The notes below the pieces were generated by a model. That model was not told where the DNA came from. It saw only the letters and a list, made by a program, of their open reading frames with translations, and searched no databases. Positions 14,513 to 35,538 of a DNA stretch of 64,000 nucleotides are shown here, piece by piece. Origin of the DNA: a virus; IMG/VR virus record IMGVR_UViG_3300045988_145033, positions 32,001-96,000 of that record. One strand, given 5' to 3'. The translations under genes were made by a program, and so were the position numbers. Every line of letters begins with the position of its first letter. Positions within the stretch are counted from its first letter, which is position 1.

Positions 14513-16426
14513 TTATAATTGTCCGTTTTTAAAGCTTTCTACATCGTATTGGTCCGGCATAGTTATTTGGTTAGTACCAAGTAGTGCTATAACTGCTCCA
14601 GTTGCCGCATCAAGTATTTTCTTTTCAGCGTCAATAGAGTTAAGTACCTTAAATGTAGTTATGTCTTTTAAAGTGCAAGTTTCACCTTTATATAACTTAT
14701 CAAGTAACACTCTTAAATCAAATGATTCTCTTATAATAAGTTTAGGGTCTTTATCTTCCATTCTATCAAAGTATTCGTTAAGTTGAGACGTTTCGTGGTT
14801 TTCAGATTCATACACTGCTTCGGTTAGATTAAATCCTACACTTTCAAATAGTATTTCTACTAAGTGAATATAAGCCATATTGATTCTATTAGCTATAGCT
14901 CTTTTTATCTTATCCATTGAATTTCCTGTCATTTTATATTTTAGATATACTTCTAAATAAGTTTTAGGAATTATAGTAGACATACCACCACAAACTCCTG
15001 AAGCTACAGCTGATTTTATAGCTCCTACCGCATCATCAACAGCTCCTAGTTTTCTATCTACTTCCCAAGAGTTATCAGCTCCAACTACTATTTCAGCATA
15101 CTTTCCATTTATTCTTCTTATTCTTGCTTTTATAGCATCAGCTCTTCCTTTATCATCTTTTACAAGAGCTAATTCTTCTTCAAGCTCTTTTACGTGTCCC
15201 TCGGCTCTTACTTTATCAAAACCAAATAAAGTAACTTGAGTTTTACTCATAATAGCATCTACTGGATTTATTGCTCCAACTTTTAATAGATTTTCTACAT
15301 ATGAAGAAACTGTGAAATCTAACTCTTCTTCTGTAAATTCTTCTATATTATCAGGGAATATATCTCTAAGTTTCTTATCAAGTTCATATGCTTGTGGTTG
15401 TCCTATCAAATATTCAAAGTCTTTATGTTCTTCTTGCGATAGTATTGTTCCAGTATAAGCATACTCGAGTATATAGATAGGTAAGAAGTCTACATTATAT
15501 TTAGTCTTATACCAATTTCTAACTTGTAGTATTTCTCTTTCAACTACATCTTTATATTGAAGATTATAAGTTATAAATACAACTGGAGACATATTTTCAA
15601 TACCAACACCGTGACCATTCATAAACTCTATCATATTATAAGCAACTTTAGCATATAGTTTCATAAGAGCTCTTATACTATCAGCCGATGCAATATTATT
15701 ATCAACTATAACTGGTATTATCTTCTTTCTTAAAACTGCTTTAGGAAATCCTAAAGGTCCTTGTTGTATAGTATATCCTTCTTTTACAGAATAGTTAGTT
15801 TTAGCTTGAGTTCCGTCTGCTTTATAAGTTACAGAGATATTAGATAAGTCTTCTCCGTCTCTTGTAATCTCTTTTAAAGCTCCTATTAAAGCATCTTTAA
15901 GTTCTGTATCATTATTTACAGAAGTTTCTATAATACCTATTAAATCACTTAAATCAGCTTGAGCAAACACTTTATGGTCGTCCATTTCTTTTTTGAAAGA
16001 TTCCACTACATCTTTAATTAAATCATTAAAGAATTGTGCTGGTAAGTTACTTTTATCTCTAAGCTCAGCTAAAGACTTATATAAATCAGCTATAAGTATT
16101 GTAGTAGTTGTAGTACCGTCTCCAGCTGTTGATAGAACTCCTAGCATAGATGATAATACAAGTTGCTTTAAAGCTTGTGCTACAGGGTGAAAGTATTTAG
16201 TTTTAGATAAAAGAGTATATCCGTCTTTTGTAATAGATGCAAGCACTGCACCATTATCTCCTGATTTTTGTATCATAAGAGTTGAAGCACCTATTGGACC
16301 ATAACTCTTTTTAACTACATCTGCCATATCATCAAGTATATGAGATATGTGCTCACTATTCATCACTGTGTGATTTGTCTCCAAAAGTATTTTCTTCGGT
16401 TGTTCCACTTTCTCTGTCATGTTCAT
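14513..16426 (-). CDS. GroEL-like (Hsp60) chaperonin
   Basis: [16 protein letters not shown] matches the GroEL ATP-binding motif GDGTTTATVLA; N-terminal [32 protein letters not shown] matches GroEL [36 protein letters not shown] near the C-terminus. Confidence 0.8.
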   Translation of the reverse strand: [637 protein letters not shown]

Positions 16427-20967: not shown

Positions 20968-21240
20968 CTATCCATATAATTTTATATTTTTTACTATTGT
21001 TGATAATTGATTTTTAAATACCTCTTCAAAGTATTTACTGTCCTCTATATACTTTATAGTCTCATTATCTTTTATTACTGGTATATTTGCTAGTAATAGT
21101 CCTCTTTTAATAACAGCCTTATTTAAAAGGGATTTGACATTTTTACTCTCAACAGCAGATATCGCATCAGCAGGATTTTCATTTGCAATGAAAGATGCTA
21201 TGTGACACGCTATGAGATGTAATTTATCGTGCTCCATCAT
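20968..21240 (-). CDS. hypothetical protein
   Basis: 90-aa ORF. Confidence 0.55.
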   Translation of the reverse strand: MMEHDKLHLIACHIASFIANENPADAISAVESKNVKSLLNKAVIKRGLLLANIPVIKDNETIKYIEDSKYFEEVFKNQLSTIVKNIKLYG

Positions 21241-22133
21241 TTAAGCCTCCTTGGTCTTTTCTTAGACATATAGAAATCTCCACGTATCACAGCTTCTCTT
21301 ATAGTGAGAGTATTATCAACTCTTGTCTTAACTGGTTCTTTAAGATAAGCAGTTAAAAGTTTTATATCCTCAGCACTATATAAAGATAATATACTTTCTA
21401 CCTGCTTACCAGTTAAATCACATTTTCCTATATTATCGAAAAATACTTGTGGAAATTTGGCTCTCGATATACCCTTTATATTAAAGATATACTTAGGATA
21501 TATTCTTGCCTTTCTATACGTTGCTAATTTTTTAATATGCTCCATATACGGAGCAAAATATTTACTTTCTTTTGATAGCATAGTATCACTTGGGTAATGC
21601 ACTTCTATAACTATTCTTGGGTCTATAGAATACATTTGTATAGTTTCATTGAATGAGACAAGTCTATCATCTAAAATGACAGCGTATTTCTCATCTTGCA
21701 GAACGTCCCAGTGCACTTTTTCTATGTTATCGTTATCTTTTTGTTTTATAGAGATTGATAACTCGTCTAAAATAGCCTCTCCTATAGCCTTTTTTACTTT
21801 GTTTTCTGGTGTTACAAACGAACGTATTCTCATACCCAAAGGTCTTTCTATAAGAGTAGATTGTAAAAGTTTATCTTGCTCATAAACTGGTTTAAATACT
21901 CTCATAAGAAATGCTTTGTGAGGATTGTAAGTTCCATCTCTTTCCTTTAAATATCTTGGACGACTATCAGCTATAGGCTCTCCATATACAGTTATTACAA
22001 GTCTTTCATCAAAGAATTTAAAAAGCTTCTCATCTTCTGGTACTTTTTCTATATAAGCAGGAGTATATCTCTCTTTTGTGTATTCAACTCTTGCTTTAGC
22101 TTTCGCTCCACTAAATTTAAGCAAACTTATCAT
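21237..22133 (-). CDS. hypothetical protein
   Basis: 298-aa ORF. Confidence 0.65.
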   Translation of the reverse strand: MISLLKFSGAKAKARVEYTKERYTPAYIEKVPEDEKLFKFFDERLVITVYGEPIADSRPRYLKERDGTYNPHKAFLMRVFKPVYEQDKLLQSTLIERPLGMRIRSFVTPENKVKKAIGEAILDELSISIKQKDNDNIEKVHWDVLQDEKYAVILDDRLVSFNETIQMYSIDPRIVIEVHYPSDTMLSKESKYFAPYMEHIKKLATYRKARIYPKYIFNIKGISRAKFPQVFFDNIGKCDLTGKQVESILSLYSAEDIKLLTAYLKEPVKTRVDNTLTIREAVIRGDFYMSKKRPRRLK

Positions 22134-22137
22134 CTCC

Positions 22138-23886
22138 TTATAGCATATTAACTATGTACGCTTTCATTTGTCCTGCACTATCCATAAATCTACGTCTTAT
22201 CCCAGCCCAGTTTCTTGTAGGTGAAATCATATTCTTAAGTGATGCTAGCACATTAGGACCTGCAAATTTAGTCCAGTCAAGAAGCACAGCATTTGCTCCA
22301 GCAAGTCCACCAAGAATAGACATATATCCTACAGCGTTTAAAGGTGCAAGTCCATTATTGTGATGTGGTAGTGCTACAACTGGTGTCATATCTCTTACAG
22401 TTACAGTAAGTGTCATATCTGTCATAAGTCCCATACCTGTCATAGTCTTAGGGTCTACAGTAGCAGATAAGGAAGTTATCATACCTACGTCCATACTAGG
22501 TAAACCTTTTGAGTACATTCTACATAGAAATGGTGCAGAAAATCCAAAGTTACCCACAGAGTGTATAGGAAGTGCCATAGGTAATATATGAGCTAGAGGC
22601 TTTAATACGTGGAAAGCATAACCTTCGGGAGTCCCTTCAGCTGTTGCGAGTCTAAATTGAAGCTGGTGCTCTCTTGCATTAGATGAAGCATCTTTCCATA
22701 TATCAGGAACTATGGTTTTAATTCCCCATCTTTTTGATTTTAAGAAATTACTCCCTGTCATCTTTTGGTCTTTATTTGATACATCTTCTTCAGCATTTAT
22801 AGTTTCATAAGATTTACCAGTTAAGAATGCTAGTTCTCTTCCTAAATCTCCAAGTCCTCCAAATGTATTAAGTTTTGCTCCAAGTTCAGACTCTCCTGCT
22901 TGGTTATCAACACCTATCGCACTTTGAACAGGACCGTCGTGATAAAATGGTACAAATGATTGGAAACTTATTTGCTCTGTAAGCATAAGTTCAACCTCTG
23001 GGTTTCCTATAGCTCTATATAAAAGCTTACCTAAAGTATCTCCAGCTGACACCTTATCCCAATATATATCAAGAAGTGTAGAACCGGGTTTTCCAGTGTA
23101 AGCTGATGCCACCCTTGATTTATACGACTGAAGTCCCGCAAGAATTATAAGATGTTGCCATATAGCATTTACATATTTCCAATAAGTATTATTAGAGGGT
23201 CTAAATTCATAAAATCTCCCTTCTCCTTTTTCACCTATTTCTCCTTGTAGTTCAGCTGTTTTTTGCTCTGCATCTTCTGCATTATTAACAGCCGCATTTA
23301 AAAACGCATCTGATATCTTAGATGATATTCCGGGTAAAAGCATAGCTATACCGGGAGTAAATGTAACTATTTGTCCATTTGATAAGAAGTTATCAAGATA
23401 GGTTCTACCGAATGAAGCATTTGTATACGGTGGGTCATCAGTTACTGAATATTTAAAAGGTTCAGCCATAAGCCCATGAATACTAAAATTCGTTTCAGTT
23501 GGATTTTGTCCTTTACCTGATAAATCATCTACCGTTGAACGCTTTAAAGCTGTGTATAAATCTCCTCCACCAATTTGTGCTTTAAAAATCTTTGTAAAAT
23601 CACTTTGTGCTATTCCGGATAAGTTTTTAAATCCGTCTGTTGCTGTTGCCATTGCCGCAGTTACATTAGCTACAGCGGCTACGGCTGGACCACCAAGTAA
23701 ACCAGCCGCTTGAAGTCCTCCACTCATAGCTTGTGGTGATATACCACCAGCACTATTTGTATTATTATTTTTTCTTACAGATTTACCTAAAGATGAAGTA
23801 GCCGCTTTAACTCCACCTGCTATAGCACCCATAGGTTTATTTGCTCCGCCAGATTTATTTTTTAAACTAGAACCTTCGTCTAACAT
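22138..23886 (-). CDS. hypothetical protein, probably virion-associated (immediately downstream of the giant gene)
   Basis: 582-aa ORF with a Gly/Ala-rich N-terminus. Confidence 0.65.
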   Translation of the reverse strand: MLDEGSSLKNKSGGANKPMGAIAGGVKAATSSLGKSVRKNNNTNSAGGISPQAMSGGLQAAGLLGGPAVAAVANVTAAMATATDGFKNLSGIAQSDFTKIFKAQIGGGDLYTALKRSTVDDLSGKGQNPTETNFSIHGLMAEPFKYSVTDDPPYTNASFGRTYLDNFLSNGQIVTFTPGIAMLLPGISSKISDAFLNAAVNNAEDAEQKTAELQGEIGEKGEGRFYEFRPSNNTYWKYVNAIWQHLIILAGLQSYKSRVASAYTGKPGSTLLDIYWDKVSAGDTLGKLLYRAIGNPEVELMLTEQISFQSFVPFYHDGPVQSAIGVDNQAGESELGAKLNTFGGLGDLGRELAFLTGKSYETINAEEDVSNKDQKMTGSNFLKSKRWGIKTIVPDIWKDASSNAREHQLQFRLATAEGTPEGYAFHVLKPLAHILPMALPIHSVGNFGFSAPFLCRMYSKGLPSMDVGMITSLSATVDPKTMTGMGLMTDMTLTVTVRDMTPVVALPHHNNGLAPLNAVGYMSILGGLAGANAVLLDWTKFAGPNVLASLKNMISPTRNWAGIRRRFMDSAGQMKAYIVNML

Positions 23887-23945: not shown

Positions 23946-26900
23946 TTATATAGATTTTCCTTTACAAATTCTATCAATAAGTTTATAAAAGTCATCATTA
24001 GAATTCATACCAGAACTTCCCATTGTAACTGGAGTAGGGTTACCATTGACCGTAGTCATTACATTGTATCCATTTAGTGCAAGATTTGTCTTCTTACCAG
24101 TTACAGCTTCTATGAATGTAGCAAATAGCTTATTCATATTACGTAACTCTCCTAAAATAGCTTCAAGTAATTTAGTTTCACCATTTTGTTCCATACCTTG
24201 AGAACGATTTATGAATTTTACCAAGTTTTCATTTATTTCATTTAAAATACCAGTCTGAGTTTGACTATGTTTTGCTGATGCTTGTATACCAGCTTTTATC
24301 TTATCTGTAGATAAAGCAATAGAGTTTGATGATTTAGCAACACCATCATCACTACCTTTTCCAGATAAGTTCATAGTCTTTGTATATTGCTCTGCCGCAT
24401 TATATGTCATATCACGAGATACACGTCCATATCCTGCAAGAACTGGCTCAACCACTTTTTCTTTAAATGTACCATAAGCTCCTTTTATGATATCTACCAT
24501 AGAAGCAGTTTTCTTTGCAAGTTTTACAGATGCTTTTTCTTTGTATATCAAAATTGCTTTTGCCATACGAAGACGTTTGTCATTTACTGAAACTTGCTCA
24601 GATGAGTTCTTTTCCGGGTCATTTATATAAATCTTACCATTTACCATCTCTTTACCTATTATGAAATGTGGTGCACCAGTTGATGATACTGTAAGAAGTA
24701 TAGGAGAACGTCCGGCACGTAGTTCACTTACAAATCTTGCAAGTACCTTATCATTAAATATAACAGAACGTATTTTATGCTCAGCTAGTATATTTACGAA
24801 ATACTTCATAGGCGTACCAGCTTTAGGTGATGATTTCATAGCAACAGCTTTACGTACTAAATCTTCCATATTGTATCTTATCTTTAACTTATCAAGAAGC
24901 ATAGCCATAACAGCAGGACCACAACCAGCTTCTCTAAATCTAAGTCCTCCACCCATTCCAAGTTTATTCCACTTTCCTGAGTTTTGTGATACGTGTTTCA
25001 TAGGTCCAAAACCTTCGTTACCAGCTTTTAATCCTTCTTGTTGCTTTGCTGACGTTTTAACTTTTTGAGTTACGCTATATGGGTCAAAGGCATCAACAAC
25101 ATATCCGTCAAACCCCATAAATTGTGCTGCTTCTTTTGTAGACGGATATTTAGATGCTGAGAAATTAGCAACTTCTCTTCCTCTTACGTGTCCATCTCCA
25201 TCTTTGTCCATTCCGTGATTTGCTTTATATTCCGCTGAACCACGCGAATAAACTGGCTTATCTGGATGATATCCTAAAGACTTAGGATAATGTAAGTAAG
25301 AATATAAGTTATATAGGTTAGGAGGATATTTACCCAAGCCTTTTATCCATCTAGGTCCAACTCTTTTTAATTGCTCAAGTGGCGTGAAACTTCCCGGAAG
25401 TTCATTAGGTGCAAACCCCCAACCTTTTCTGTAACTCTTCATTACTTGGAAAAGTCCAGATGCTCCACCGTTACTATTATATGCGTCAGGTTGCCAAGTT
25501 GACTCAGAATAAGATACAGCTAACATATTTCTCGCAACATCTACTCCCCATTGAGAAACAGCATAATCCCACATTTCTTTCATTTGCTTCCTATATTGTG
25601 GGTTCTTAGCTTTTTGCATAAGCCCCATATTCTTAGTGACTCCAGTTATAACATTTCCACCACTAAAATCTCCTGAACTTGAATCTTCTGCTACAACATT
25701 GCCGTTTTCATCTAGGTTAAATCCTAAAGATGTTGCTAAATTTTTCACAGTAGCACCTATATCGAAGTTTTTGATAAATTCATATCTATCTCCAAATTTA
25801 GAAGCATTGTCATCATCTATCATAGCTTGCATATCAGATTTAGCTTTTGTAGCTTCTTGAGTTGTTGTATCAACTTTTGTAAGCTTACCGTCTGGAGTTA
25901 CAGGTCCAAATCCTTGATAAGCTCCATATCCGTCACTATCAGTTTTATATTTATCATACAACTTACTATTCTTTTTAGCTATGTCTTCTTTTTCTTTTTT
26001 ATCTTTCTCTTCTTGTTGCTTTTTAAGTTTTTCTTGATTTTCTTTTCTCTTCTTTGCATCTTCGTCACGTTTCTTCCAATAATCTGGGTCTTTTAAATCA
26101 TAATCGCTATCAGCATCTGGGTCATATCCATAATCAGTCTTATCAACATCACCATTTGCTTCTTCTTCACGCTTAGCTTTATATTCTTCATATTTGCTCT
26201 TACCCCATTCTTTTAATTCTTCTTCTTCTCTCTTCTTAGCTTCTTCTTTATCACTTTCTTCTTTATTAAAAGCTTCTAGTGCTTCTTTTGATTTCCATTC
26301 GGATTCATCAACACCAGATACCCATTCGTAGAACCACACAACCATATCATCTATAGGGATAGCAGCAAGCCACCATACTTTAGATGATGCTAGTCCCCAT
26401 AATAGTTCCACAAAACCTGATGCAAATTTCATACCAGTAGTTATGTAATCAGAACCTACGTTGAAATAATCTCTTGCGTGTCTCCAACCATGAATAAAAT
26501 CATATATTGCAAATATTCCGTCTACTATAGCTCCTACTGGTGGTAATGCGTAAGATGCAGAACGAGTAACATTTTTAGCTGTCTTCTTAGCGGCTTTCTT
26601 TGCAGCCTTTTTACTCATCTTTTTAGCAACAACTTCTATTCCGCCTTTCTTTAAAAGTTTTTCAGCAAATGCTTTAGTAAGCTTATAATTAAGAAGTTTT
26701 CTTAACATCTTTTCTATAAACTCTTTAAACCATTTACCAATAGCGGTTTCTGTTATTTGCTTTACTCCACGTTCAGCCAGATTTTGAGCACCTTTTCTAA
26801 ACGCTTCGTTTTTAAATAAACCATTTTTAGCTATTCTAAGTCCAGTTTGTTGAATATTATGAGTTACAGTTTCTCCAGTTCTTCCAGTAGAGTTTATAAA

Positions 26901-29900
26901 GTTTTCGTATTGTTGTCCATAAGAAGAATTAGCAAACGCAACAAGTGCTCCACCACCAACAAGTGCTCCTATTGCCGGAAGTGCTTTTACTATAGCTCCA
27001 CCCATAATCTTAGAACCAAGTCCTTGCATTCCAAGTTTTGTGAATATATTACCTAAGAATTTAGAACCTCCACCACCAGAACCAAACATAGATGCCGCTG
27101 CTCCAGCTATAGTTCCTAATACACCATTATCTTTCACTTGTTGTACTAAAGTTACCTTACCATCTTTATCCTTTTTCTCCTTATCTTTTTTGTCTTGTCT
27201 TTTATCAATGTCAGCATATTCTGCACCGTCTTTCATCTTAGGTGATTTACCTTTTCTTCTCTTTCCAGACATAGCAGATTTGAAGTCTTCTTTATATCCA
27301 AGCTTATTATACATAGATTCAGCATATTCTAAATCTACTGCACCAACAGCTTTTACAACTTCAACTACTCTTACATTATCTATTATACCGCCTTCAACCC
27401 AAACTTTATTAGTTCTATTCTTTCTACCAAATAGAATATTCCATACACCGGTTACTAAGTCTTTACCTCTTTGATATATCCAGTCAAATACCTTACCAAC
27501 TGAAGTTACAAGCCAAGTAATACCTCTACCTATCTTATCAAGACCTTTATCTATGATAGTTCCTATTCTATCAGCCGCACCCATAACTATAGCAGGAAAA
27601 TTAGATATAAGTTTCCAAGCAAGTCCAAAAGTAGCATTCCATAAAGTTCTACCGAATATCTTAATACCACCCCATATCTTGCCAGCAAACATTCTAAGTC
27701 CTAAAAGCATTTGAGTTCCCCAATACTTAATAGATGAGAATACCCCTTTTACGAACCCACCTATTCTTGAAAGCACTGGTAGTGCCATATGTTTCCATAT
27801 AGATTTAGCTATCCATAAAGGAAACTTAATAAACATAAGCTTCATAGCACCTAATGTTTGCATAGTTGCTGATACGACAGGTCTTACAAGTTTATTATAA
27901 AGTCCAGAAAGTAGAGCTCCCGGTAAAGCCTTAAGTCTTCTCCAACCGTTTTTGAATTTTTGTCCAAGCCAAGAGAAGTGCTTATTCTTTACATTCTTCG
28001 CACCAAAGCCGGGAATAGGTCCATATTTACGAACAAGAATTCTTTTAATATACTCAGCATTATATGCAAGAGATGAGGTTTGAAGATTTATAGTATCACG
28101 AAGTTTTTCAGCTTCTTCTAAATACTTCTTTCTCCAATTCTTTATAAGGATATAAAGTTCGGAACGTTTACCTAAATACTTAGCAAGAGCCGACCTTTGT
28201 GTCATATTCTTGTCAAAGGCTTGTATACCACCTTTTATCTTTTGAGCAACATTTACAACACCATCTCTCATCTTCTTAATCATAGATACCTTTATTGGAT
28301 TTCCATTCTCATCTAAAACTTCAGGTTCGTCTTCATTTGGGTCTTTTTTTCCAAATTTAGATTTAAGCCAACCTTTTATAGCGTTGACATAACCTTTCTT
28401 TCCTTCTTCTACATTTATACCTTCTTTGTGAAGAAATTCTTCAGTAGTTTCACCTTTCTTCAAAGCCTCGGCTTCAGGCATAGTTTTACCTATGACTTCT
28501 CCTATTTTATTTACATATGCTTTCTTTCCTTTTTCTAGCATATCCTTTATATTCTCATCTGTAGTAGATGAAACTACAGCTTCTTTAGGACCTACTTCCT
28601 CAGCTTTAGCCCCAGCTAACATAGTTCCAATAGTTATCTTTTCTTCATTTGTTAATGTCTTCCATTGTTTTTCTTTAAAGAATATCGCTTGCTTTGCGTG
28701 TGCTTCTAAAGTAGCAATATCCACTGTCATATCAGGTTTTCTATCAGGGTCTGCATATTCTACAGTTCCTTGAGAAGATATAAAGTATACCACAATATAA
28801 TGAAGATTATCAGTTTCAAAATCTGATAACTCTACTATTACACAATTTCCAGAAAAAGCACCTTTCATAAATGACATAAATGTACCAGCTTTAGGATTTA
28901 CAACATGGGTTGCATCTATTCCAAATTTTCTAGCGACGCTCATTATATATGAAGCTGGAACTCCATTTGTAGAACCTGTCCAACCAAATGATTTCTTAGT
29001 TAGATATTCAGGTTTTATAGAAAATCCTGTAGCACGAGATAAAGCCGTTGCAAGAGCTGATAGTCCACATAAAGTTCCATCTCCACCAATATTTGGTATG
29101 ACTTTACTTTTTATAGATTTCGCTATATCTTTTGCAACTCCTTTTAGATTAAGTGCTCCACTTCTTCCTTTTATACCCTTTCCTGATTGCCCTTCTTCTT
29201 CTTTAGCTTTGGCTTTTTGAGCTTCATCGACTTTAGCATCCGCTTCAGCTTTCTTCTTAAGATAATCAGCTTGAATTTCTTTACCTCTTTTCTTAAGTCT
29301 AAAAGCTTCGAGTCTTTCATCTAAAGTTTTATCTTTTACTTCTTGTACGTCTTGACCTTCCATACGTTTAGCAATAGCAGCCTTTTTAGCATCTTTTGCT
29401 CTCATCTTAAGTAAAAGCTTTTTATCACTTTCAGAAAACTCTGAAGCTTCTTGTACGTCTTTATCTGTCATACCTTCAGAACGCATATAAAGGTCTTCTT
29501 TACGTCTTGTAGCATTTTCATAAGCTTCAACATTTTTAACACCTTCTGGAGTTTTAGCTGTATGAGAAGCACTAAATGAAGCTCTTCTATCAGCTATATC
29601 GTCAGCGTCCGTTCTTCCAGTTACTAGAGTTCTAAACATTTTAAACGGAGCCGCAATTATTCTACCTATGAATTTAAACATTCCACCGAATATCTTTTTA
29701 AATACTCCAGCAATAGGGTCTATTACCTTTTCTTTCATAGTTTTAAAGAATGGTTTTACAAAGTCATTTGTAAATGAACCCGTAAGTTCTCCTTTTATAC
29801 CAGTTATAGTTTTAAATATACCAGAAGCTGTATTTGACATAAATTCCTTAATAGGAGTAAATGTTTGCGAAAGTGGCTTCCATATATCTTTTCTAAACCA

Positions 29901-32900
29901 TATAGCCATCTTTCTAGGAGCTTCTTTTATAAATCCAGTAAATCCTTTTGTAGCTTTTGTAAGTATTCCTTCTTTACCAGACTCTTTATCTCCTATAAGC
30001 CAAGTCTTTAAGTTTCCTAAGAAAGTTCCTTCTTCAGTTCCAAAAAGCATTTTTCTAAAACCTTTAGATTCCCCAGCTATAGATACAGCAAGTCCAGCAA
30101 GAGCCGCATTAACTGGTCCTATAAAACCAAGAGGTGTTGCAGCCGCAAGTATTCCAGAAAGTCCAGCAATAGCTCCACCTGTAACAAGTGCTCCTTTTGT
30201 AATTCTCATCATCTTAGCACGTGCTTCTTTAGCTTTTTCACTATTTCCAAATAATCTTTCAAATAAGTTAGACTTATAAGCATACACTCCAACTCCTAGA
30301 GCGAGAGCACCTAAAGCTAGAGGAGATGCAAGTCCTGTAAGTCCTATTATTGGACCAAACATTGACTTCTTCAAGAACTTGAAAGCTCCTATACCTGCCG
30401 CACCTATCATTGCGGCTTTTGATGCTTTCCATATAGTATCTTTATTATCTTCGTAAAAGTTCTTAGCTTTATCTTTCATATCTCCCATTTTTTCTTTAAA
30501 AGACTTAGCTGTATTTTCTACTCTTTCTTTCATTCTATCGACAGCTTCTGATTTACCAGATTCTATACCGTCAACAGTTCCATCATCTTTTAATTTAATA
30601 GAAGAAGCAACTGATGATACTGAATTTTTAGCATCTTTCCAAACAGACTTCGCTTTATCTATTTTTCCGTCAACGTTAATATCAGACCTTACTTGAAATC
30701 TATCTTTTAACTCAACTATCTTCTTTTTAAACCAGTTAGACGAATATATTATATCTTTAATTTCTTTTCTTATATCTTCGTCTTTCTTTTCTGGGTCTGT
30801 AAGTATTTCAAGTATTCTATCTTTATCTTTATCAGTCACATCGAATTTATCAAGTTCCATTTTAATAGATTCTATTTCTAAATTTCCGCCTATTATAGCA
30901 TCTATTGTAGCTTGGTGTCCTAGAATAGTATCAATAGAAAATACATCTGTATCCATCATATTTTTAAACCACTCTTTATCTTGAACTCCTATTCTTTCTC
31001 CAAGTTTAGTATTTCCTATATCAACTATAAAGTCCTTTATCTTATTTTTGAACATAGTTCCAGCTCTTCTATTATCTTTATAGAATTCATCTATAGATTT
31101 AATAGCATCTGGAGTTAGAGTTTCTCCTAATATATTTCCAACAAGTCCATCTTTATTCTTAAGAGATACCTTACCTTCATTCTTTAAAAGATATTCATAC
31201 TTAAACCCTAAAGATTCAAGTATCTTTTTCTTATCTTCTTCCGATACATTGCTACCGCCTCCAACTCCACCAGTTAGAAGTTGTTGAAATATAGCTTTAA
31301 GTCCTACGGCAGAACCTTCGTCTATAGAACCTGAGTTATTTAAAAGATGGATAACTCCATTATTTCTTGACTCTAAACTTTGCTCTCTAAAGAAATTATT
31401 AGAATCTCTTATCCAAGTTTCCATAGATTTATCAAGTGATGCGAACTGGTCGGCTCTATTTTTCTCAGCTTTATTCATCAAATCCACGAACTTATAAAAA
31501 TCTGATTTTGAAAGTTCATCAGACGATAAATTAAGATTTGATAGCAGTTGTCCGTAATCGTGTTCCTTGAAGTTAGTTAAAGTGTAACCCTTTTTAGATA
31601 GTTCTTCCATTACGATTTTAGTAAAATCATTAAGTCTTTGCTCATCTAAATTCTTCTTATCACCATCAGACATTTGAGATTTGAGCATTTCAGCTAGTTG
31701 TCTGTATTCGTACTTCATTGTAGGTCTATTATCTTCAAATTCTTTACGAACTGTAGATAATGTCTTAAACTGTCCTTTATTATAATCATACGTAGTTCTC
31801 TCATTTCCAGTTAAAGCTGAAGCAATAGATGATAGATATGTAGGAATTACTGTAACTATAGCTTCTCTTGTTATGCCATCGAAAAATACATGCTTTGATT
31901 TATCATACTTATCTGTACGAAGATTAGATTCAACGTCAGGTTTTATCATAACAGACCTACCGAAAGTAGATAAAGTTGCATTAGATGATAAAGATGCAGT
32001 TCTTGCTTGTTTATTAATAAAGTCTTGAGTTGTTCCAAATACTCTTTCTACCTTTTTAGCAATTTTATCTAGTCCAAATAGTTTATTAAGCTGATTGTCT
32101 ATAGCAAAGGCACGAAGTGCTGCAAATGGATTTGAACCGAATGCTTGCATAAGCATAGGAAGTGCAGCCATAGCAAGTCCCCAAGTTCCTTGAAACTTTT
32201 CTTGGTCGATAGCTCTACCTAATTCTCCACCTAAAGCCTTTACACCTTGTCCCATTTCCCCTTTACGAATAGCTTTATACCATTCTGGAATATAGTCTCC
32301 ACCTCTATCATCTTCTTTATTTATCTTAGGTAAATAGTAATCTGATAGCATTTCTTTTAATGCTTTATGCTCTGTAAGCATCTCTGTTTGTATAGCAAGT
32401 AACTTTTGTTGTATACCGACAGATTGAGTTAAGCTATCAGCCATAGTTCTATAATACATTTCATTTTTAAGCATTTGAGATTTAATATCAGAACTTGTAG
32501 CTACGAGTGTATTATTTATGGAAGTTGCTGTTTGCATAAATCCTTCCATCATCATCTTTTGCGATGCTTTAGTACCACCTTGTATACTTTTAGATAATCT
32601 TCCTACAGCGGCATATGTCGCTATACCGTTGGTAGCACCAACGGAAGGAGAGCTTTGTGAACTACTATCAGAAGACTCGCTATCTCTACTCGAATCCCCA
32701 CTCTCGAAGAAAAAGTCATCTTCACCAAAATCAAAGTCTGCATCAAGTCCATACATCTCATCTTCAGATTTATAGAATTTACCAGATTTAAGTCCAGCAA
32801 ACGCATTCTTTGTAAGAGATGATACGAATTGATAAAGAGATGATTGTTTTATTTTATTTTTAATTCCGGAAAAACCAGACGTATTTCTACTATCATTAAA

Positions 32901-33035
32901 CGCCTTATATCCAGCACGAACGTCTTTTGAGAAATTCATAGTATTTCCAAATGTATCTGACATATAATCAGCATACACATTTCTCATTGACATCTTGGCG
33001 TTATACATATAAGTCGATTCTTTTTTACCAGCCAT
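23946..33035 (-). CDS. giant (3029 aa) virion or tape-measure-like protein with one lytic transglycosylase domain and two papain-like peptidase domains
   Basis: SLT motif YSESTWQPDAYNSNGGASGLFQVM (about nt 25440-25530); Cys-His peptidase signatures DGTLCGLSALA...NLHYIVVY...DPD (about nt 28700-29100) and AGCGPAVMAMLL (about nt 24450-24940); long Lys/Glu coiled-coil tracts and Gly-rich hydrophobic segments. Confidence 0.8.
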   Translation of the reverse strand: MAGKKESTYMYNAKMSMRNVYADYMSDTFGNTMNFSKDVRAGYKAFNDSRNTSGFSGIKNKIKQSSLYQFVSSLTKNAFAGLKSGKFYKSEDEMYGLDADFDFGEDDFFFESGDSSRDSESSDSSSQSSPSVGATNGIATYAAVGRLSKSIQGGTKASQKMMMEGFMQTATSINNTLVATSSDIKSQMLKNEMYYRTMADSLTQSVGIQQKLLAIQTEMLTEHKALKEMLSDYYLPKINKEDDRGGDYIPEWYKAIRKGEMGQGVKALGGELGRAIDQEKFQGTWGLAMAALPMLMQAFGSNPFAALRAFAIDNQLNKLFGLDKIAKKVERVFGTTQDFINKQARTASLSSNATLSTFGRSVMIKPDVESNLRTDKYDKSKHVFFDGITREAIVTVIPTYLSSIASALTGNERTTYDYNKGQFKTLSTVRKEFEDNRPTMKYEYRQLAEMLKSQMSDGDKKNLDEQRLNDFTKIVMEELSKKGYTLTNFKEHDYGQLLSNLNLSSDELSKSDFYKFVDLMNKAEKNRADQFASLDKSMETWIRDSNNFFREQSLESRNNGVIHLLNNSGSIDEGSAVGLKAIFQQLLTGGVGGGSNVSEEDKKKILESLGFKYEYLLKNEGKVSLKNKDGLVGNILGETLTPDAIKSIDEFYKDNRRAGTMFKNKIKDFIVDIGNTKLGERIGVQDKEWFKNMMDTDVFSIDTILGHQATIDAIIGGNLEIESIKMELDKFDVTDKDKDRILEILTDPEKKDEDIRKEIKDIIYSSNWFKKKIVELKDRFQVRSDINVDGKIDKAKSVWKDAKNSVSSVASSIKLKDDGTVDGIESGKSEAVDRMKERVENTAKSFKEKMGDMKDKAKNFYEDNKDTIWKASKAAMIGAAGIGAFKFLKKSMFGPIIGLTGLASPLALGALALGVGVYAYKSNLFERLFGNSEKAKEARAKMMRITKGALVTGGAIAGLSGILAAATPLGFIGPVNAALAGLAVSIAGESKGFRKMLFGTEEGTFLGNLKTWLIGDKESGKEGILTKATKGFTGFIKEAPRKMAIWFRKDIWKPLSQTFTPIKEFMSNTASGIFKTITGIKGELTGSFTNDFVKPFFKTMKEKVIDPIAGVFKKIFGGMFKFIGRIIAAPFKMFRTLVTGRTDADDIADRRASFSASHTAKTPEGVKNVEAYENATRRKEDLYMRSEGMTDKDVQEASEFSESDKKLLLKMRAKDAKKAAIAKRMEGQDVQEVKDKTLDERLEAFRLKKRGKEIQADYLKKKAEADAKVDEAQKAKAKEEEGQSGKGIKGRSGALNLKGVAKDIAKSIKSKVIPNIGGDGTLCGLSALATALSRATGFSIKPEYLTKKSFGWTGSTNGVPASYIMSVARKFGIDATHVVNPKAGTFMSFMKGAFSGNCVIVELSDFETDNLHYIVVYFISSQGTVEYADPDRKPDMTVDIATLEAHAKQAIFFKEKQWKTLTNEEKITIGTMLAGAKAEEVGPKEAVVSSTTDENIKDMLEKGKKAYVNKIGEVIGKTMPEAEALKKGETTEEFLHKEGINVEEGKKGYVNAIKGWLKSKFGKKDPNEDEPEVLDENGNPIKVSMIKKMRDGVVNVAQKIKGGIQAFDKNMTQRSALAKYLGKRSELYILIKNWRKKYLEEAEKLRDTINLQTSSLAYNAEYIKRILVRKYGPIPGFGAKNVKNKHFSWLGQKFKNGWRRLKALPGALLSGLYNKLVRPVVSATMQTLGAMKLMFIKFPLWIAKSIWKHMALPVLSRIGGFVKGVFSSIKYWGTQMLLGLRMFAGKIWGGIKIFGRTLWNATFGLAWKLISNFPAIVMGAADRIGTIIDKGLDKIGRGITWLVTSVGKVFDWIYQRGKDLVTGVWNILFGRKNRTNKVWVEGGIIDNVRVVEVVKAVGAVDLEYAESMYNKLGYKEDFKSAMSGKRRKGKSPKMKDGAEYADIDKRQDKKDKEKKDKDGKVTLVQQVKDNGVLGTIAGAAASMFGSGGGGSKFLGNIFTKLGMQGLGSKIMGGAIVKALPAIGALVGGGALVAFANSSYGQQYENFINSTGRTGETVTHNIQQTGLRIAKNGLFKNEAFRKGAQNLAERGVKQITETAIGKWFKEFIEKMLRKLLNYKLTKAFAEKLLKKGGIEVVAKKMSKKAAKKAAKKTAKNVTRSASYALPPVGAIVDGIFAIYDFIHGWRHARDYFNVGSDYITTGMKFASGFVELLWGLASSKVWWLAAIPIDDMVVWFYEWVSGVDESEWKSKEALEAFNKEESDKEEAKKREEEELKEWGKSKYEEYKAKREEEANGDVDKTDYGYDPDADSDYDLKDPDYWKKRDEDAKKRKENQEKLKKQQEEKDKKEKEDIAKKNSKLYDKYKTDSDGYGAYQGFGPVTPDGKLTKVDTTTQEATKAKSDMQAMIDDDNASKFGDRYEFIKNFDIGATVKNLATSLGFNLDENGNVVAEDSSSGDFSGGNVITGVTKNMGLMQKAKNPQYRKQMKEMWDYAVSQWGVDVARNMLAVSYSESTWQPDAYNSNGGASGLFQVMKSYRKGWGFAPNELPGSFTPLEQLKRVGPRWIKGLGKYPPNLYNLYSYLHYPKSLGYHPDKPVYSRGSAEYKANHGMDKDGDGHVRGREVANFSASKYPSTKEAAQFMGFDGYVVDAFDPYSVTQKVKTSAKQQEGLKAGNEGFGPMKHVSQNSGKWNKLGMGGGLRFREAGCGPAVMAMLLDKLKIRYNMEDLVRKAVAMKSSPKAGTPMKYFVNILAEHKIRSVIFNDKVLARFVSELRAGRSPILLTVSSTGAPHFIIGKEMVNGKIYINDPEKNSSEQVSVNDKRLRMAKAILIYKEKASVKLAKKTASMVDIIKGAYGTFKEKVVEPVLAGYGRVSRDMTYNAAEQYTKTMNLSGKGSDDGVAKSSNSIALSTDKIKAGIQASAKHSQTQTGILNEINENLVKFINRSQGMEQNGETKLLEAILGELRNMNKLFATFIEAVTGKKTNLALNGYNVMTTVNGNPTPVTMGSSGMNSNDDFYKLIDRICKGKSI

Positions 33036-33120: not shown

Positions 33121-35538
33121 TTATTCTTCTTGCCCTTCTTCTTTAAGATTATCTTTAAATGTAAGTTTATGAACTTTCCATTTTTCTTCAATTTGTTCAA
33201 GCTCTTCTGAATGGTCGTATGCTGGGAATAGTTCTTTTATAAGCTCTCTTCTTATAAATAGTTTCTTCTCAGCAGATAATGTGTCTTCTTCTCCATAATA
33301 CATTTTCATTATATTATTTAAACTTTCTTCAAACTTCTGAGCATTTTCGTTAGATATATTAGAAGTTAAAAGTTTAGGAACAGGGAATGTTATATCAACA
33401 TGTGTATCATCTTCTCCAGTTTCATATCTTGCTATCTTAGTTGCAAGTTCTGTAGCCATAGGAGCATAATGCACTTGAAGATTAGTTATCATTTGTACAA
33501 GTCTTCCGTCTTGAGCTATAATAGATGTAGCATAATCGTATGTCTTTTCTGCTTGATTAAGAGTTGACATAGGGAAACCTACTATATCTTCTATTATAGT
33601 TTCAAGGTTTTTCATAAAATCATCATTTGAATTATCATACTTTTGACCTTCTATTCTGTCTACTGAGAATAACTCATTACCAGCTTTATCCACAGGAATT
33701 AAAAGTCTTCCAATAGTTGCCATAGATGAGTGTACTCTTGTGAAATCTGTAAGCTCAGACGGTAGCGGAAATAAATCTGTAAATATCTCCATGGCATCAT
33801 TTCTATCATTGAATAAGCTTTGTGCAAAAGTAGTTCTGTATTTTATAGCAAGTTTATCCTTTTCATAGAATAGTTTTGTCATCATCTTATCTTGTTGTAA
33901 AAGTGTCCAGAATAGAATAGGAATTCTTGCGTATAAAAGTTTAGATTTTCCTATACCATTATTTGATTCTTCATTTTGAAAAGGAACTAAATATTTTCTA
34001 GGTATAAATCTTATTCTAAATTGAGACTTATACATATCGTTTTCTTCTAGCACTTTAAGCATAGAACCTAGTATTCTTCTATTTTCTGTAACGAAGTTAG
34101 CATCCATATGCTCAGTTAATATATTAGAAAGTCCTTCTATTATATCCTTTCTTACTATAGGATTATCTTTGTAATCTCCACTATCTCCAAACTTATTAGA
34201 ACCTAATACGTTATTTATAGTATTAGAATATGATTTATTAGCAGCATAATCCATAAATGTATCTATATAGTAAACTCCTATAAGTTCCTTATTTACTATA
34301 ACTGGATAAGTCTTCTCATCATCAAGAGGAGATACATAACAACCAGTCATATCTTTTATCTTAGATTTTCTTTTAGACTTTGTACTTCTTTTAAGCTCAG
34401 CCAGTGCCTTTTTGTATTCAGCATCATCAGTTGCTTCAGCATATAGTTTACTTATTTTAGCTTGTTTTACAACTTCTCTTTTATCAGCTCTTGTTGTCAA
34501 AAAGCTTTCATTTGACTCTCCCATAAGTCTCATATGAATACTATGAGCTATCTTTTCTTTATGATTAGGAGAATATACAGATTCTGTAAAGAATTGAGAA
34601 GCTAACTTTTCTTTTGTTTCCACACTCTTGTCTATAGGTTTTGCAAATGATTCCGAATAAGTCTCGTAAACTCTACTATATTTTCCCATACCAAAAGCTT
34701 CATCTATAGCATCGTATAGAGTTGACATTATCTCTCTTCTTTGAGTAGAAGTTCCATTATATGATTCTCTATATAGTTTTACATAATTTGCAGGAATTAC
34801 GATATTTTCACTTTCTCCATAAAAAACTACGTCTTCTATCTTATCTATATGAGACATACCATAAAGTTGTGGTTGCCCACCCGGTATAACTCTTTGTCCT
34901 TGAGCCATCTTACCCTCTATTATTTGTCTTTGCTCAACCTTACTTCCTGATACTCTATCAAGTAATTTCTTTGCTACATTTTGTAAAGGTATGAGTTCTA
35001 TAAATCTATAACCTAGCTCTAAACTTGCAAGTATGCTATCGTTTACAAGTTTATATAAACCTCTTTCTTCAAGTATTGCATTTATATCAGATTGTGTAAA
35101 AGCACTATCAGATTTTAAATAAATGTCTTGTATAAGTTCTTCTTCTGAGTAGTTATCAGGAGACATAATAAATTTAGTTAGGTTTGCAAATGTATTATGT
35201 AGCTGAGGCATTTGAGTAAGCATATAGTTTGACTCACGAATAAGTCTAGTTCTTTCATTATAAGGAATAGAGTGTACATATCTTTTACCCATATTCTCCA
35301 TAACTTCTACAAATTGATTTTCAAGGTCAGTTTCCTTTCCTCTTATTCTTGAACGTGCTTCTACTATATTACCTTGTCCTGCTGTTGATTCTATTGACGA
35401 TTGTACAAAATTAAAGCCTATATCATCTGAACTATCCATAAGCTTACCTATATCTGTAGTAATACCAAAAACTTTAGACGTCGTTTTATCCCTAAGTTTT
35501 AGGTATTGTTCTTCATTCTCTTGTCTATTAAGTGGCAT
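33121..35538 (-). CDS. hypothetical protein (805 aa)
   Basis: long ORF with SD AAAGGAGGAAATAAT. Confidence 0.7.
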   Translation of the reverse strand: MPLNRQENEEQYLKLRDKTTSKVFGITTDIGKLMDSSDDIGFNFVQSSIESTAGQGNIVEARSRIRGKETDLENQFVEVMENMGKRYVHSIPYNERTRLIRESNYMLTQMPQLHNTFANLTKFIMSPDNYSEEELIQDIYLKSDSAFTQSDINAILEERGLYKLVNDSILASLELGYRFIELIPLQNVAKKLLDRVSGSKVEQRQIIEGKMAQGQRVIPGGQPQLYGMSHIDKIEDVVFYGESENIVIPANYVKLYRESYNGTSTQRREIMSTLYDAIDEAFGMGKYSRVYETYSESFAKPIDKSVETKEKLASQFFTESVYSPNHKEKIAHSIHMRLMGESNESFLTTRADKREVVKQAKISKLYAEATDDAEYKKALAELKRSTKSKRKSKIKDMTGCYVSPLDDEKTYPVIVNKELIGVYYIDTFMDYAANKSYSNTINNVLGSNKFGDSGDYKDNPIVRKDIIEGLSNILTEHMDANFVTENRRILGSMLKVLEENDMYKSQFRIRFIPRKYLVPFQNEESNNGIGKSKLLYARIPILFWTLLQQDKMMTKLFYEKDKLAIKYRTTFAQSLFNDRNDAMEIFTDLFPLPSELTDFTRVHSSMATIGRLLIPVDKAGNELFSVDRIEGQKYDNSNDDFMKNLETIIEDIVGFPMSTLNQAEKTYDYATSIIAQDGRLVQMITNLQVHYAPMATELATKIARYETGEDDTHVDITFPVPKLLTSNISNENAQKFEESLNNIMKMYYGEEDTLSAEKKLFIRRELIKELFPAYDHSEELEQIEEKWKVHKLTFKDNLKEEGQEE

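Follow-up and report, generated by a model that had tools for sequence, protein, structure and literature searches.

The largest protein encoded in the window, the stretch of 64,000 nucleotides analysed here, is very probably a tail protein of the phiKZ gp181 type, as judged from sequence comparison, and its new element relative to phiKZ gp181, AR9 g204 and phiR1-37 g083 is the presence of two C39-type cysteine peptidase domains. The window is part of a Fusobacterium nucleatum myovirus genome of about 180 kb, related to phage JD-Fnp1. We tentatively prefer a self-processing role for the peptidase domains, at rather less than an even chance; this was one of two suggestions made in an earlier note on this DNA, and is the one now favoured.

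Family membership and layout of the giant protein

The protein is the translation of an ATG-started open reading frame of 3029 aa. Its features, and the two genes that follow it, are:

23946..33035, minus strand: giant ORF, predicted gp181-type tail tape-measure/tail-lysin protein, 3029 aa
31656..33035, minus strand: N-terminal family-signature domain, aa 1-460, motif FFDGITREAIVTVIPTYLSSIASALTG...YDYNKGQF (tblastn, HMM, hhalign)
30069..30362, minus strand: Gly-rich hydrophobic (transmembrane-like) cluster 1, aa 892-989 (hydropathy scan)
29157..29183, minus strand: GKGIKGRSG motif, aa 1285-1293, in the linker that closely precedes C39a, candidate processing site
28626..29138, minus strand: predicted C39a peptidase domain, aa ~1300-1470, Cys1323/His1412/Asp1429 (PF03412, AF2)
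26490..27014, minus strand: hydrophobic cluster 2, aa 2008-2182, segments 2008-2038 and 2163-2182 (hydropathy scan)
25836..26303, minus strand: hypervariable K/E/D-rich linker, aa ~2245-2400, with QGFGPV (aa 2374) at its end (composition)
25056..25628, minus strand: predicted SLT lytic transglycosylase module, aa ~2470-2660, catalytic Glu2511 (ES motif), GLFQV (Pfam, AF2)
24999..25016, minus strand: EGFGPM motif, aa 2674-2679, right before the opening strand, KHVSQ, of C39b, candidate processing site
24486..25004, minus strand: predicted C39b peptidase domain, aa ~2678-2850, Gln2684/Cys2705/His2790/Asp2806 (PF03412, predicted fold)
24351..24482, minus strand: linker after C39b with GAYGT (aa 2852), AGYGR (aa 2867) and SGKGS (aa 2891), candidate processing sites
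23949..24428, minus strand: C-terminal tail, aa 2870-3029, kept within the Fusobacterium-phage clade only
22138..23886, minus strand: gp182-like virion structural protein, 582 aa (phrog_3181 and phrog_20401, 'virion structural protein')
21237..22133, minus strand: RusA-like resolvase ORF (phrog_140 match)

The N-terminal domain finds AR9 g204, PBS1 gp95, phiR1-37 g083 and BpSp gp263 by tblastn. These are its closest cultured-phage matches; they come from uracil-DNA jumbo phages and are annotated as tail tape measure proteins. The family HMM gives E~1e-16 for AR9 g204 and phiR1-37 g083, and BLASTP against a protein of this type aligns aa 18-425 with 13-405 (E 2e-14). Similarity to phiKZ gp181 is seen by profile methods only (hhalign probability 91%, E 9e-7), and the two domains share an IPxYLS...YDxxxGxF motif. 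A profile search with the domain returned 2170 clusters at 50% identity.

The 582-aa protein matches phiKZ gp182 and phiR1-37 g085 by BLASTP. AR9, phiR1-37, BpSp and a 269-kb metagenome contig have the giant, the gp182-like virion protein and RusA in this same order, and the giant-gp182 pair is also kept in phiKZ. The homology of the N-terminal 460 aa together with these following genes indicates that the giant is the counterpart of phiKZ gp181, AR9 g204 and phiR1-37 g083, in agreement with the tape-measure-type virion protein proposed earlier.

gp181 resembles the giant in being very large with an SLT domain near its C-terminus, and the phiKZ lineage, like the phage studied here, has split multisubunit RNA polymerases. 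It is, however, 800 aa shorter (2237 aa), and the phiKZ genome is 280 kb. gp181 is a virion/tail-associated peptidoglycan hydrolase with homologues in phiKZ-like jumbo phages, and is listed among tail-associated muralytic proteins (PMC5380687). The AR9, PBS1, BpSp and phiR1-37 proteins are also shorter than the giant (1800-2550 aa) and come from phages of Bacillus and Yersinia; AR9 g204 and phiR1-37 g083, like the giant, carry a lysin towards the C-terminus, either a VgrG3-like lysozyme or an SLT domain. In SPN3US, which is related to phiKZ, mass spectrometry of tailless heads led to a tail assignment for gp239, a 259-kDa 'tail tape measure protein' (PMC10052503); gp239 is set beside gp181 and the giant by description and phage kinship, not by sequence.

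About 100 full-length homologues of the giant occur on contigs of 170-180 kb, and identity to JDFnp1_176 of JD-Fnp1 is 72-79%, varying by region. The next largest JD-Fnp1 proteins after this counterpart are an RNA polymerase subunit of 1484 aa and a protein of 1048 aa, and the giant is the sole protein of the genome with enough length for a tail ruler. The myovirus JD-Fnp1 has a tail of 335 nm, and the tail of JD-Fnp4 is 300 nm (PMC9670143).

The K/E-rich stretches and Gly-rich hydrophobic segments described earlier are present by composition. Cluster 1 is the most conserved part of the body, with 97% identity to the relative P0030 and 66-70% to a clade of 40% identity, whereas the linker at aa ~2245-2400 has 43% and 18% respectively. 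For the C-terminal tail, Pfam gave no match above threshold, and an HMM found P0100 and P0101 as its sole matches among distant relatives.

The lytic and peptidase domains

The earlier note described a lytic transglycosylase and two cysteine peptidase domains, and had proposed Pfam annotation as a check. This returned SLT and Peptidase_C39 with catalytic residues intact, all three domains being above threshold as segments. The SLT match has 24.9 bits as a segment (cut-off 21.3) and 20.8 bits on the whole protein, and spans only positions 1-49 of the 117 in the profile. Its signature is where it was first placed, with ESTW at aa 2511 and GLFQVM at 2527 (nt ~25457-25505), and the Glu is invariant among homologues down to 32% identity. 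A profile of the module matches the phage lytic transglycosidase 9udh (E 9e-8) and also EF-hand proteins; an EF-hand-like loop, DKDGDGHVRGRE, lies inside it (aa 2610-2621, nt 25173-25208). The AF2 model (pLDDT ~90) has a fold like those of 9udh and MltF.

Peptidase_C39 matches two stretches of the whole protein (E 3e-11). Scanned as segments with PF03412 (cut-off 22), C39a reaches 24.4 bits and C39b 28.3 bits; C39b also has sub-threshold matches to C39_2, C70 (near threshold) and DUF3335. Both signatures noticed earlier coincide with these domains: DGTLCGLSALA (aa 1319), HYIVVY (1412) and DPD (1429) with C39a (nt 29081-28749), and GCGPAVMAMLL (aa 2704) and HFIIG (2790) with C39b (nt 24926-24666). 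The top fold matches of the C39a model (pLDDT 80) are the ComA peptidase domain and PCAT1, and the predicted fold of C39b matches PCAT1 (7n87), ComA (3k8u), LahT150 (6mpz) and 3erv. Of the alternatives 'C39/NlpC-P60 type' offered earlier, C39 thus stands, by Pfam and by fold, and NlpC/P60 falls away: there are no Pfam hits to NlpC/P60 or CHAP in the giant, and neither is named among the fold matches listed.

Homologues down to 32% identity all keep Cys, His and Asp of both domains, and those down to ~22% all keep the Gln/Cys/His/Asp set of C39b. Because the catalytic residues are invariant, the domain matches go beyond chance. The giant has only four cysteines in 3029 aa, two of which are the predicted nucleophiles Cys1323 and Cys2705. 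The upstream Gln-containing strand of C39a (YYFNQ in relatives) is missing from the giant's sub-clade. Both domains are apparently catalytically competent C39-type peptidases, to judge from residues and models, and it is likely that SLT and C39b are enzymatically active.

At least one C39 domain stands beside a lysin in 127 of 137 full-length cluster representatives from metagenomes, while two C39 domains occur in only 11. The combination that the earlier note called unusual is therefore common as regards C39 beside a lysin, and uncommon as regards the second C39. Among cultured relatives, phiKZ gp181, AR9 g204 and phiR1-37 g083 were scanned, and have no C39 by Pfam or custom profiles. The uncultured proteins P0103-P0260 (3000-5200 aa, contigs of 240-270 kb) share with the giant the N-terminal domain, hydrophobic and 'LFG' blocks, and a C-terminal C39_2 beside lysins with G-[RKSFY]-G flanks. 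Most of them differ in having a single C39, before a lysozyme, with NlpC/P60, CHAP or M23; in the giant SLT is followed by C39, and a second C39 lies mid-protein.

Glycine motifs around the C39 domains

Flanking motifs were counted around 130 C39 domains, taken from representatives of clusters at ≤50% identity. These came from the best 150 hits of a profile made with proteins that carry C39, and the lineages are partly non-independent. G[RK]G occurs in 49% of the 50-aa windows upstream and 45% of those downstream, against 6.5% of random windows. For G-[R/K/S/F/Y]-G, enrichment is ~3- to 16-fold above background depending on the middle residue; with A, V, I, D, E or T in the middle there is no enrichment in the same 130 domains. 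In the C-terminal third of the sampled family proteins, 53% of G[RK]G motifs are within 50 aa of a C39 boundary.

At the EGFGPM position, which falls within a low-pLDDT linker of the AF2 model, G[FY]G[PN] is kept in every family member examined, and G[FY]G at the QGFGPV site is also kept in relatives. In divergent members such as P0106, P0113 and P0116, motifs are also found between other lytic domains. AR9 g204 and phiR1-37 g083 each have one copy of an LFGRG-type motif.

The giant's domains resemble the C39 domains of the bacteriocin ABC exporters ComA, PCAT1 and LahT in profile match, Gln/Cys/His/Asp set and predicted fold. The giant differs in having no ABC transporter fusion and no evident double-glycine leader substrate. 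The flanking motifs differ from the GG/GA/GS sites of characterised C39 enzymes, and no canonical double-glycine site adjoining the giant's C39 domains is conserved among homologues.

Possible roles of the C39 domains

The serious rival to self-processing, in our judgment unlikely, is that the C39 domains act on peptidoglycan, as endopeptidase or amidase, and help SLT to open the wall locally, with no self-cleavage. C39 is always in the C-terminal lytic block beside a glycosidase, 3erv is among the C39b fold matches, and the N5 'cysteine protease' domain, present in mycobacteriophage endolysins, matches the same B. anthracis C39-like peptidase (PMC3314691); virion lysins with two or three bond specificities are also common (PMC5380687). 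However, many relatives have dedicated NlpC/P60, CHAP or M23 peptidoglycan peptidases alongside C39, which argues that C39 serves another task. The nearest folds are leader-peptide proteases and protein-cleaving toxins rather than NlpC/P60 or CHAP enzymes, and neither the bracketing G-x-G motifs nor the second C39, mid-protein between hydrophobic blocks, is explained. The Gram-positive cross-links suggested earlier do not apply, since F. nucleatum is Gram-negative.

It is improbable that the domains are injected effectors that cleave proteins of the host's envelope or cytoplasm, such as those for defence or tethering. Papain-like CDI toxins, a protease toxin/immunity pair and the effector AvrRpt2 are among the fold matches, and there is the near-threshold C70 match, but no immunity or target gene is evident, and C39 and its flanking motifs are kept together across phages of very different hosts. 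Effector roles are proposed for embedded peptidases in the literature on polyvalent proteins (Iyer et al., 2017, PMC5512222), which like the giant are very large, multidomain and virion-delivered, and whose peptidase is proposed to free other domains. Their peptidases are zincin-like metallopeptidases, however, and they are head-packaged with nucleic-acid and defence-targeting effectors; domain scans found no polyvalent-protein or other effector domains in the giant.

We regard as very improbable that the giant is an internal head (ejection) protein near the portal, T7 gp16-like or giant-phage-like, rather than a tail ruler. Its gene is directly downstream of one annotated as portal and outside a classical tail module, the head, reported as 130-155 nm, is large for a genome of 180 kb, and T7 gp16 is an internal protein with SLT (PMC5380687). 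Against this, its homologues and syntenic counterparts are annotated or reported as tail components, the assignment of SPN3US gp239, likened by description only, points to the tail, and a 300-335 nm tail would have no other ruler candidate. Least probable is that one or both C39 domains are structural remnants without catalysis. The lost Gln strand of C39a and inactive C39-like domains such as that of HlyB (fold matches 3zua and 7sgr) might suggest this, but Cys/His/Asp are invariant in both across deep divergence, in a protein with only four cysteines.

The full explanation that we favour, at slightly under an even chance, is a phiKZ/AR9-lineage tail tape-measure/tail-lysin protein with self-processing C39 domains. 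With a few copies filling it, the tail tube would take its length of 300-335 nm from the giant; on sheath contraction the giant would be expelled before the DNA, SLT would cut the glycan strands in the peptidoglycan layer, and the Gly-rich hydrophobic segments would enter the membrane and help to build a DNA conduit. These ejection steps are drawn from knowledge of tape-measure proteins and gp181, family membership alone being shown here. C39a and C39b would be built-in proteases cutting at G-[R/K/S/F/Y]-G linkers around the C39 and lytic modules, with candidate cuts at GKGIKGRSG before C39a, QGFGP before SLT, EGFGP before C39b, and GAYG, AGYGR and SGKGS after it. Cleavage would release or activate modules, during tail assembly or after ejection.

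Lactococcal Tal, lambda gpH (giving H*) and T5 pb2 are tail proteins that bear lysin domains and undergo proteolytic trimming, which in Tal falls at a Gly-rich site. To our knowledge none has a dedicated cysteine protease domain, and their proteases, where known, are non-C39. We count against the full explanation the LFGRG-type motif in C39-less AR9 g204 and phiR1-37 g083, C39a without its Gln strand, the portal-adjacent gene, the lack of canonical GG sites beside C39, and a folded 170-aa mid-protein domain that is hard to fit in a tail tube. Within this family of tail proteins, C39 beside a lysin is near-universal in the sampled metagenomic members and absent from phiKZ, AR9 and phiR1-37.

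Domain composition of the giant protein

The giant ORF is real and correctly located, and the transglycosylase and Cys/His/Asp motifs that the earlier note had quoted from it are all present where they were reported. It and the features within it that are discussed in this section are:

23946..33035 (−): giant ORF, ATG start, 3029 codons, uninterrupted
25173..25208 (residues 2610-2621): canonical EF-hand-like calcium-binding loop, DKDGDGHVRGRE, inside the SLT (lytic transglycosylase) module; a PDB profile search matches EF-hand proteins
~24935..25835 (residues 2401-2700): mosaic SLT module, from identity comparison
25836..26303 (residues ~2245-2400): K/E/D-rich hypervariable linker before the SLT module

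A Pfam search with the whole protein matched Peptidase_C39 in two separate stretches (E 3e-11), and gave SLT 20.8 bits, just below the cut-off of 21.3. Tested as in-frame segments, all three domains were above cut-off: SLT scored 24.9 bits, and PF03412 (cut-off 22) scored 24.4 bits for the mid-protein domain (C39a, residues ~1300-1470) and 28.3 bits for the C-terminal one (C39b, residues ~2678-2850), so that the domain annotation proposed in the earlier note gives Peptidase_C39 twice and SLT. PF13529 is below cut-off here, yet it is on record for the family. The SLT Pfam match spans residues 2491-2537, and the full module is present in the predicted model. SLT and C39 are the only domains detected in the Pfam and PHROGs searches, the latter giving nothing useful (a single match at E 0.007). 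The NlpC/P60-type identity suggested earlier for the cysteine domains is rejected, as is CHAP, because neither PF00877 nor PF05257 has a Pfam match in the giant even at E≤1, neither is named among the listed fold matches, and both Pfam and the fold matches indicate C39.

An alignment was made of 16 family members, down to 32% identity. The catalytic sites are intact: Cys1323/His1412/Asp1429 in C39a, Cys2705/His2790/Asp2806 in C39b, and the SLT catalytic residue Glu2511, which lies in the E-S motif, are all invariant. In a comparison of C39b with distant giants, which have one C39 domain each (~22% identity), no more than eight columns are invariant. Gln2684, Gly-Cys2705, His2790 and Asp2806-Pro are among them, and make up the complete Gln/Cys/His/Asp set of the clan CA peptidases. 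A caveat applies to C39a, in that the N-terminal strand carrying the conserved Gln (YYFNQ in the relatives of about 40% identity) is missing in the sub-clade of the window phage. The giant has four cysteines in total.

AlphaFold models built from family alignments have a mean pLDDT of 80 for both the C39a and the C39b/SLT regions. Searching PDB sequences with just the C39a profile found almost nothing, and a fold search was therefore needed. Using Foldseek against the PDB, the predicted structure of C39a matches 5xe8 and 3k8u (E 1e-6 to 1e-5, TM 0.7); the ComA peptidase domain and PCAT1 are closest, followed by papain-like CDI toxins and staphopain. The predicted structure of C39b matches 7n87, 3k8u and 6mpz (TM 0.69-0.75); its nearest folds are those of the PCAT1 peptidase domain, ComA, LahT150 (a double-glycine protease) and 3ERV, a C39-like peptidase of B. 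anthracis. Both domains are thus identified, by profile, catalytic residues and predicted papain-like fold, as Peptidase C39/C39_2 of clan CA. The SLT module has a PDB profile match to 9udh, a phage lytic transglycosidase (E 9e-8), and its predicted fold matches 9udh and MltF. By profile, catalytic Glu and predicted lysozyme-like fold it is assigned to the GH23-type lytic transglycosylases.

The module has several features of its own. A loop similar to DKDGDGHVRGRE is present in aligned family members. Residues 2401-2700 are only 44-56% identical to one homologue (P0002) that is elsewhere 83-99% identical. Their identity to two members of the clade that otherwise reaches 40% is as high or higher (49-60%), which suggests that phage lineages have exchanged the lysin module. 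The linker before it is 43% identical to that of the protein of JD-Fnp1, an annotated Fusobacterium phage, and 18% identical to that of the 40%-identity clade, compared to 70-97% in its flanks; a further homologue (P0101) has a repeat-rich stretch at the matching region.

Relationship to tape-measure and tail-lysin proteins

The DNA of the window is 88% identical to the Fusobacterium nucleatum phages JD-Fnp1, 4, 6 and 7. The other genes discussed here are:

14513..16426 (−): 637-aa ORF, counterpart of a JD-Fnp1 gene annotated '60 kDa chaperonin'
21237..22133 (−): 298-aa RusA-like resolvase ORF, with the RusA match only at residues 44-193
33121..35538 (−): 805-aa ORF, 'portal protein' in JD-Fnp1, no PHROG match at E≤0.001
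53693..56485 (+): piece of a split multisubunit RNA polymerase of phiKZ/AR9 type (phrog_2986/2962), also in the JD-Fnp1 genome

Among the ORFs near the giant are several from 'virion structural protein' families, and the phiKZ-type split multisubunit RNA polymerase subunit. The split polymerase pieces place the window phage in the phiKZ/AR9 lineage. The genome here is only ~180 kb, which is under the usual 'jumbo' limit, and the host is Fusobacterium. The phage also appears to encode a GroEL-like protein, judging from the annotated counterpart.

A family search found about 100 full-length homologues of 2900-3100 residues on contigs of 170-180 kb, plus more distant giants. Searching with the N-terminal 1300 residues (tblastn) revealed a short, strongly conserved motif at residues 377-432, which is shared with AR9 g204 ('tail tape measure protein'), PBS1 gp95, BpSp gp263 and phiR1-37 g083 ('putative tape measure'). 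An HMM covering the first 450 residues matches g204 and g083 with E~1e-16, and BLASTP aligns residues 18-425 with residues 13-405 of g083 (E 2e-14). Profile-sequence comparison (hhalign) aligns residues 13-508 with residues 68-614 of phiKZ gp181, at a probability of 91% and E 9e-7. The homology, of ~450 residues, sits at the very N-terminus of the giant. Like gp181, g083 and g204, the giant also has a muralytic domain in its C-terminal part. The closest cultured relatives of this N-terminal domain are AR9, PBS1 and phiR1-37, which are uracil-DNA phages.

Gene order is also conserved. After the giant comes a virion protein of ~570 residues, a homologue of phiKZ gp182 and phiR1-37 g085, and the RusA-like gene comes next; this arrangement is shared by the window, AR9, BpSp, phiR1-37 and a metagenomic contig of 269 kb. 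The resolvase is reported to be a virion component in BpSp (PMC4870245), and gp181 is listed as a tail/baseplate-associated muralytic protein (PMC5380687). The giant is therefore identified with high confidence as a tape-measure/tail-lysin protein of the gp181 type, and the tape-measure suggestion of the earlier note stands firmly as far as family membership goes. Two other identities were rejected. The giant adjoins the portal-annotated gene, but a head protein does not agree with its homology and gene order. Polyvalent proteins combine several host nucleic-acid or defence effector domains, usually with a zincin-like MPTase (PMC5512222), whereas the giant has only SLT and C39.

In SPN3US, a phiKZ-related phage, mass spectrometry of virions compared to tailless heads placed gp239, a 259-kDa 'tail tape measure protein', in the tail (PMC10052503). 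By analogy with gp239, a possible homologue of gp181 and the giant, and with gp181, the giant would lie in the tube lumen.

JD-Fnp1 and JD-Fnp4 are myoviruses with contractile tails of 300-335 nm (PMC9670143). In the complete JD-Fnp1 genome, the only protein above 1100 residues besides the giant is an RNA polymerase subunit, and the next non-polymerase protein has 1048 residues, so that no protein but the giant is a candidate ruler for a tail of this length. With 0.15 nm per residue, its 3029 residues would span 454 nm, or ~370 nm after subtracting three globular domains, which is of the right order compared to the tails but is not exact. A 643-residue ORF (44748..46679) with weak matches to tape-measure PHROGs was considered as an alternative ruler and rejected, since a tail of 300 nm would need a longer protein and the JD-Fnp1 counterpart carries the annotation baseplate wedge. 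A tail-module setting, following frameshifted tail-chaperone genes, was not found, the giant lying after the portal-annotated ORF and before the virion protein and RusA. Structural genes are scattered in JD-Fnp1, where the sheath gene is ~50 kb from the homologue of the giant.

GenBank already contains the sequence of the giant, with a name that misleads: its homologue is called 'papain-like cysteine protease' in the annotated records of JD-Fnp1 and JD-Fnp4. The analysis also corrects the database label 'papain-like cysteine protease AvrRpt2', a name that obscures the structural role of the protein.

Distribution of C39 domains in the family

It is well known that tape-measure proteins can carry lysin domains. 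Tape measures with dedicated cysteine protease domains were not described in the literature searched. According to Pfam, phiKZ gp181 and phiR1-37 g083 contain SLT only and AR9 g204 contains a VgrG3-like lysozyme only; none of the three has a C39 domain by Pfam or by the C39 profiles built here. In distant metagenomic giants, C39_2 is combined with Phage_lysozyme2, SLT, glucosaminidase, NlpC/P60, CHAP or M23.

The N-terminal profile was run exhaustively against 1.84 billion cluster representatives and matched 2170 clusters, 1308 of them at E≤1e-30; those listed are mostly 3000-5200 residues long. C39 domains were counted in 137 full-length representatives among the best 150 of the 2170 matches, a sample in which relatives of the query, itself C39-bearing, are over-represented. 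One C39 domain is present in 116 (median relative position 0.77), two in 11 and none in 10. At least one is therefore present in 127/137, and a lysin plus C39 is the norm in the sampled uncultured members. A second C39 in mid-protein marks the Fusobacterium-phage clade, and tandem copies at the C-terminus occur in a few other lineages. The earlier note had called two peptidase domains plus SLT unusual; two C39 domains are uncommon in this sample, and an architecture with one C39 is common in metagenomes. The giant, with its C39 domains (here two), is a variant form of the known gp181/tape-measure tail lysin.

A possible role for the C39 domains

The C39 domains could act on peptidoglycan or on the giant itself. 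The peptidases of the ComA/PCAT1 type cleave after a double-glycine leader, and work fused to an ABC exporter or as its partner. By contrast, no ABC transporter domain was detected in the giant by Pfam, and in the alignment canonical double-glycine sites are not conserved beside its C39 domains. The GG directly before both catalytic cysteines was considered as a cleavage site and is not conserved either (IGGDGTL compared to FMGNSTL, and MGGG compared to MG-G). The few conserved G-[GAS] positions fall in structured or hydrophobic regions, and the double-glycine idea was therefore dropped in favour of G-x-G linker motifs. In divergent members, short motifs of this kind occur exactly at domain borders, for example GSGLFGRGS, WGRGSG and KFGRGFFGRG. 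In the clade of the window phage the motif is G[FY]G[PN], and the giant contains:

residue 1285: GKGIKGRSG, before C39a
residue 2374: QGFGP, before the SLT module
residue 2674: EGFGP, directly ahead of the first C39b strand, where the model has a linker of low confidence
residues 2852-2895: GAYG, AGYGR and SGKGS, after C39b

A strict test for G[FYW]G in 12 proteins, whose lineages are not independent, found it in 5/12 on each side of C39. A larger set was then examined, 130 C39 domains whose source representatives are at ≤50% identity. Of the 50-residue windows upstream, 49% contain G[RK]G, as do 45% of those downstream, compared to 6.5% of random windows from the same proteins. GxG is enriched roughly 3- to 16-fold, depending on residue and side, only when the middle residue is R, K, S, F or Y; with A, V, I, D, E or T there is no enrichment beside C39 domains. 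The glycine content of the flanking windows is only slightly raised (13% vs 9%). Where G[RK]G occurs in the C-terminal third of these proteins, it falls within 50 residues of a C39 boundary in 53% of cases.

Many relatives of the giant also carry a dedicated peptidoglycan peptidase. Together with the flanking motifs, this pattern is best explained by C39 being a processing protease, which would cut the polyprotein-like C-terminal block and, in the Fusobacterium clade, may cut the ruler itself too. The self-processing suggested in the earlier note stands tentatively. It would parallel the autoproteolysis proposed for the metallopeptidases of polyvalent proteins (PMC5512222). The adjacent genes of Staphylococcus jumbo phage DC4, encoding a 1990-residue 'tail tape measure protein with M23 domain' and a 1962-residue 'tail lysozyme' (PMC10638138), may be a naturally split version of the giants, and would fit with the fused proteins being cut. 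Against self-processing, LFGRG motifs are also found in AR9 g204 and phiR1-37 g083, which both lack C39, and the motifs flanking C39 are not canonical C39 sites. That C39 makes the giants self-cleaving polyproteins, excising itself and neighbouring lysin modules at G-[R/K/S/F/Y]-G linkers in a so far undescribed maturation step, is possible but somewhat doubtful.

The main rival is that the C39 domains are peptidoglycan peptidases, for which the C39-like N5 domain of mycobacteriophage endolysins is a precedent (PMC3314691). The Gram-positive wall that the earlier note had considered as a substrate does not apply, the host being Gram-negative. A protease acting in trans could also be encoded elsewhere: JD-Fnp1 has a separate gene, JDFnp1_82 (82538..83410 of that genome, outside the window), annotated as a 'cysteine peptidase'.

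From what is established for tape measures and gp181, the giant would fill the tube and set the tail length, would be expelled on sheath contraction, and would cut glycan with its SLT domain, while its Gly-rich hydrophobic segments (residues 892-989, 2008-2038 and 2163-2182) may enter the membrane. If C39 is a processing protease, it would cleave the flanking linkers to release or activate the modules, either in tail maturation, or at infection to release the enzymes and unplug the tube. The Fusobacterium clade would then have gained a second protease, which may split the ruler in two.

Fusobacterium nucleatum is linked to periodontitis and colorectal cancer. Should C39 cut peptidoglycan instead, it would represent a new class of virion-borne wall peptidase, and could be useful against this bacterium. 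If the protease processes the ruler, it would provide a concrete and testable mechanism for maturing enormous tail proteins or for freeing their enzymes. C39-bearing tape measures are the majority state in our sample from a very large family of proteins, 3000-5000 residues long, of uncultured giant phages, and such a maturation step, if true, would be common to many of them.
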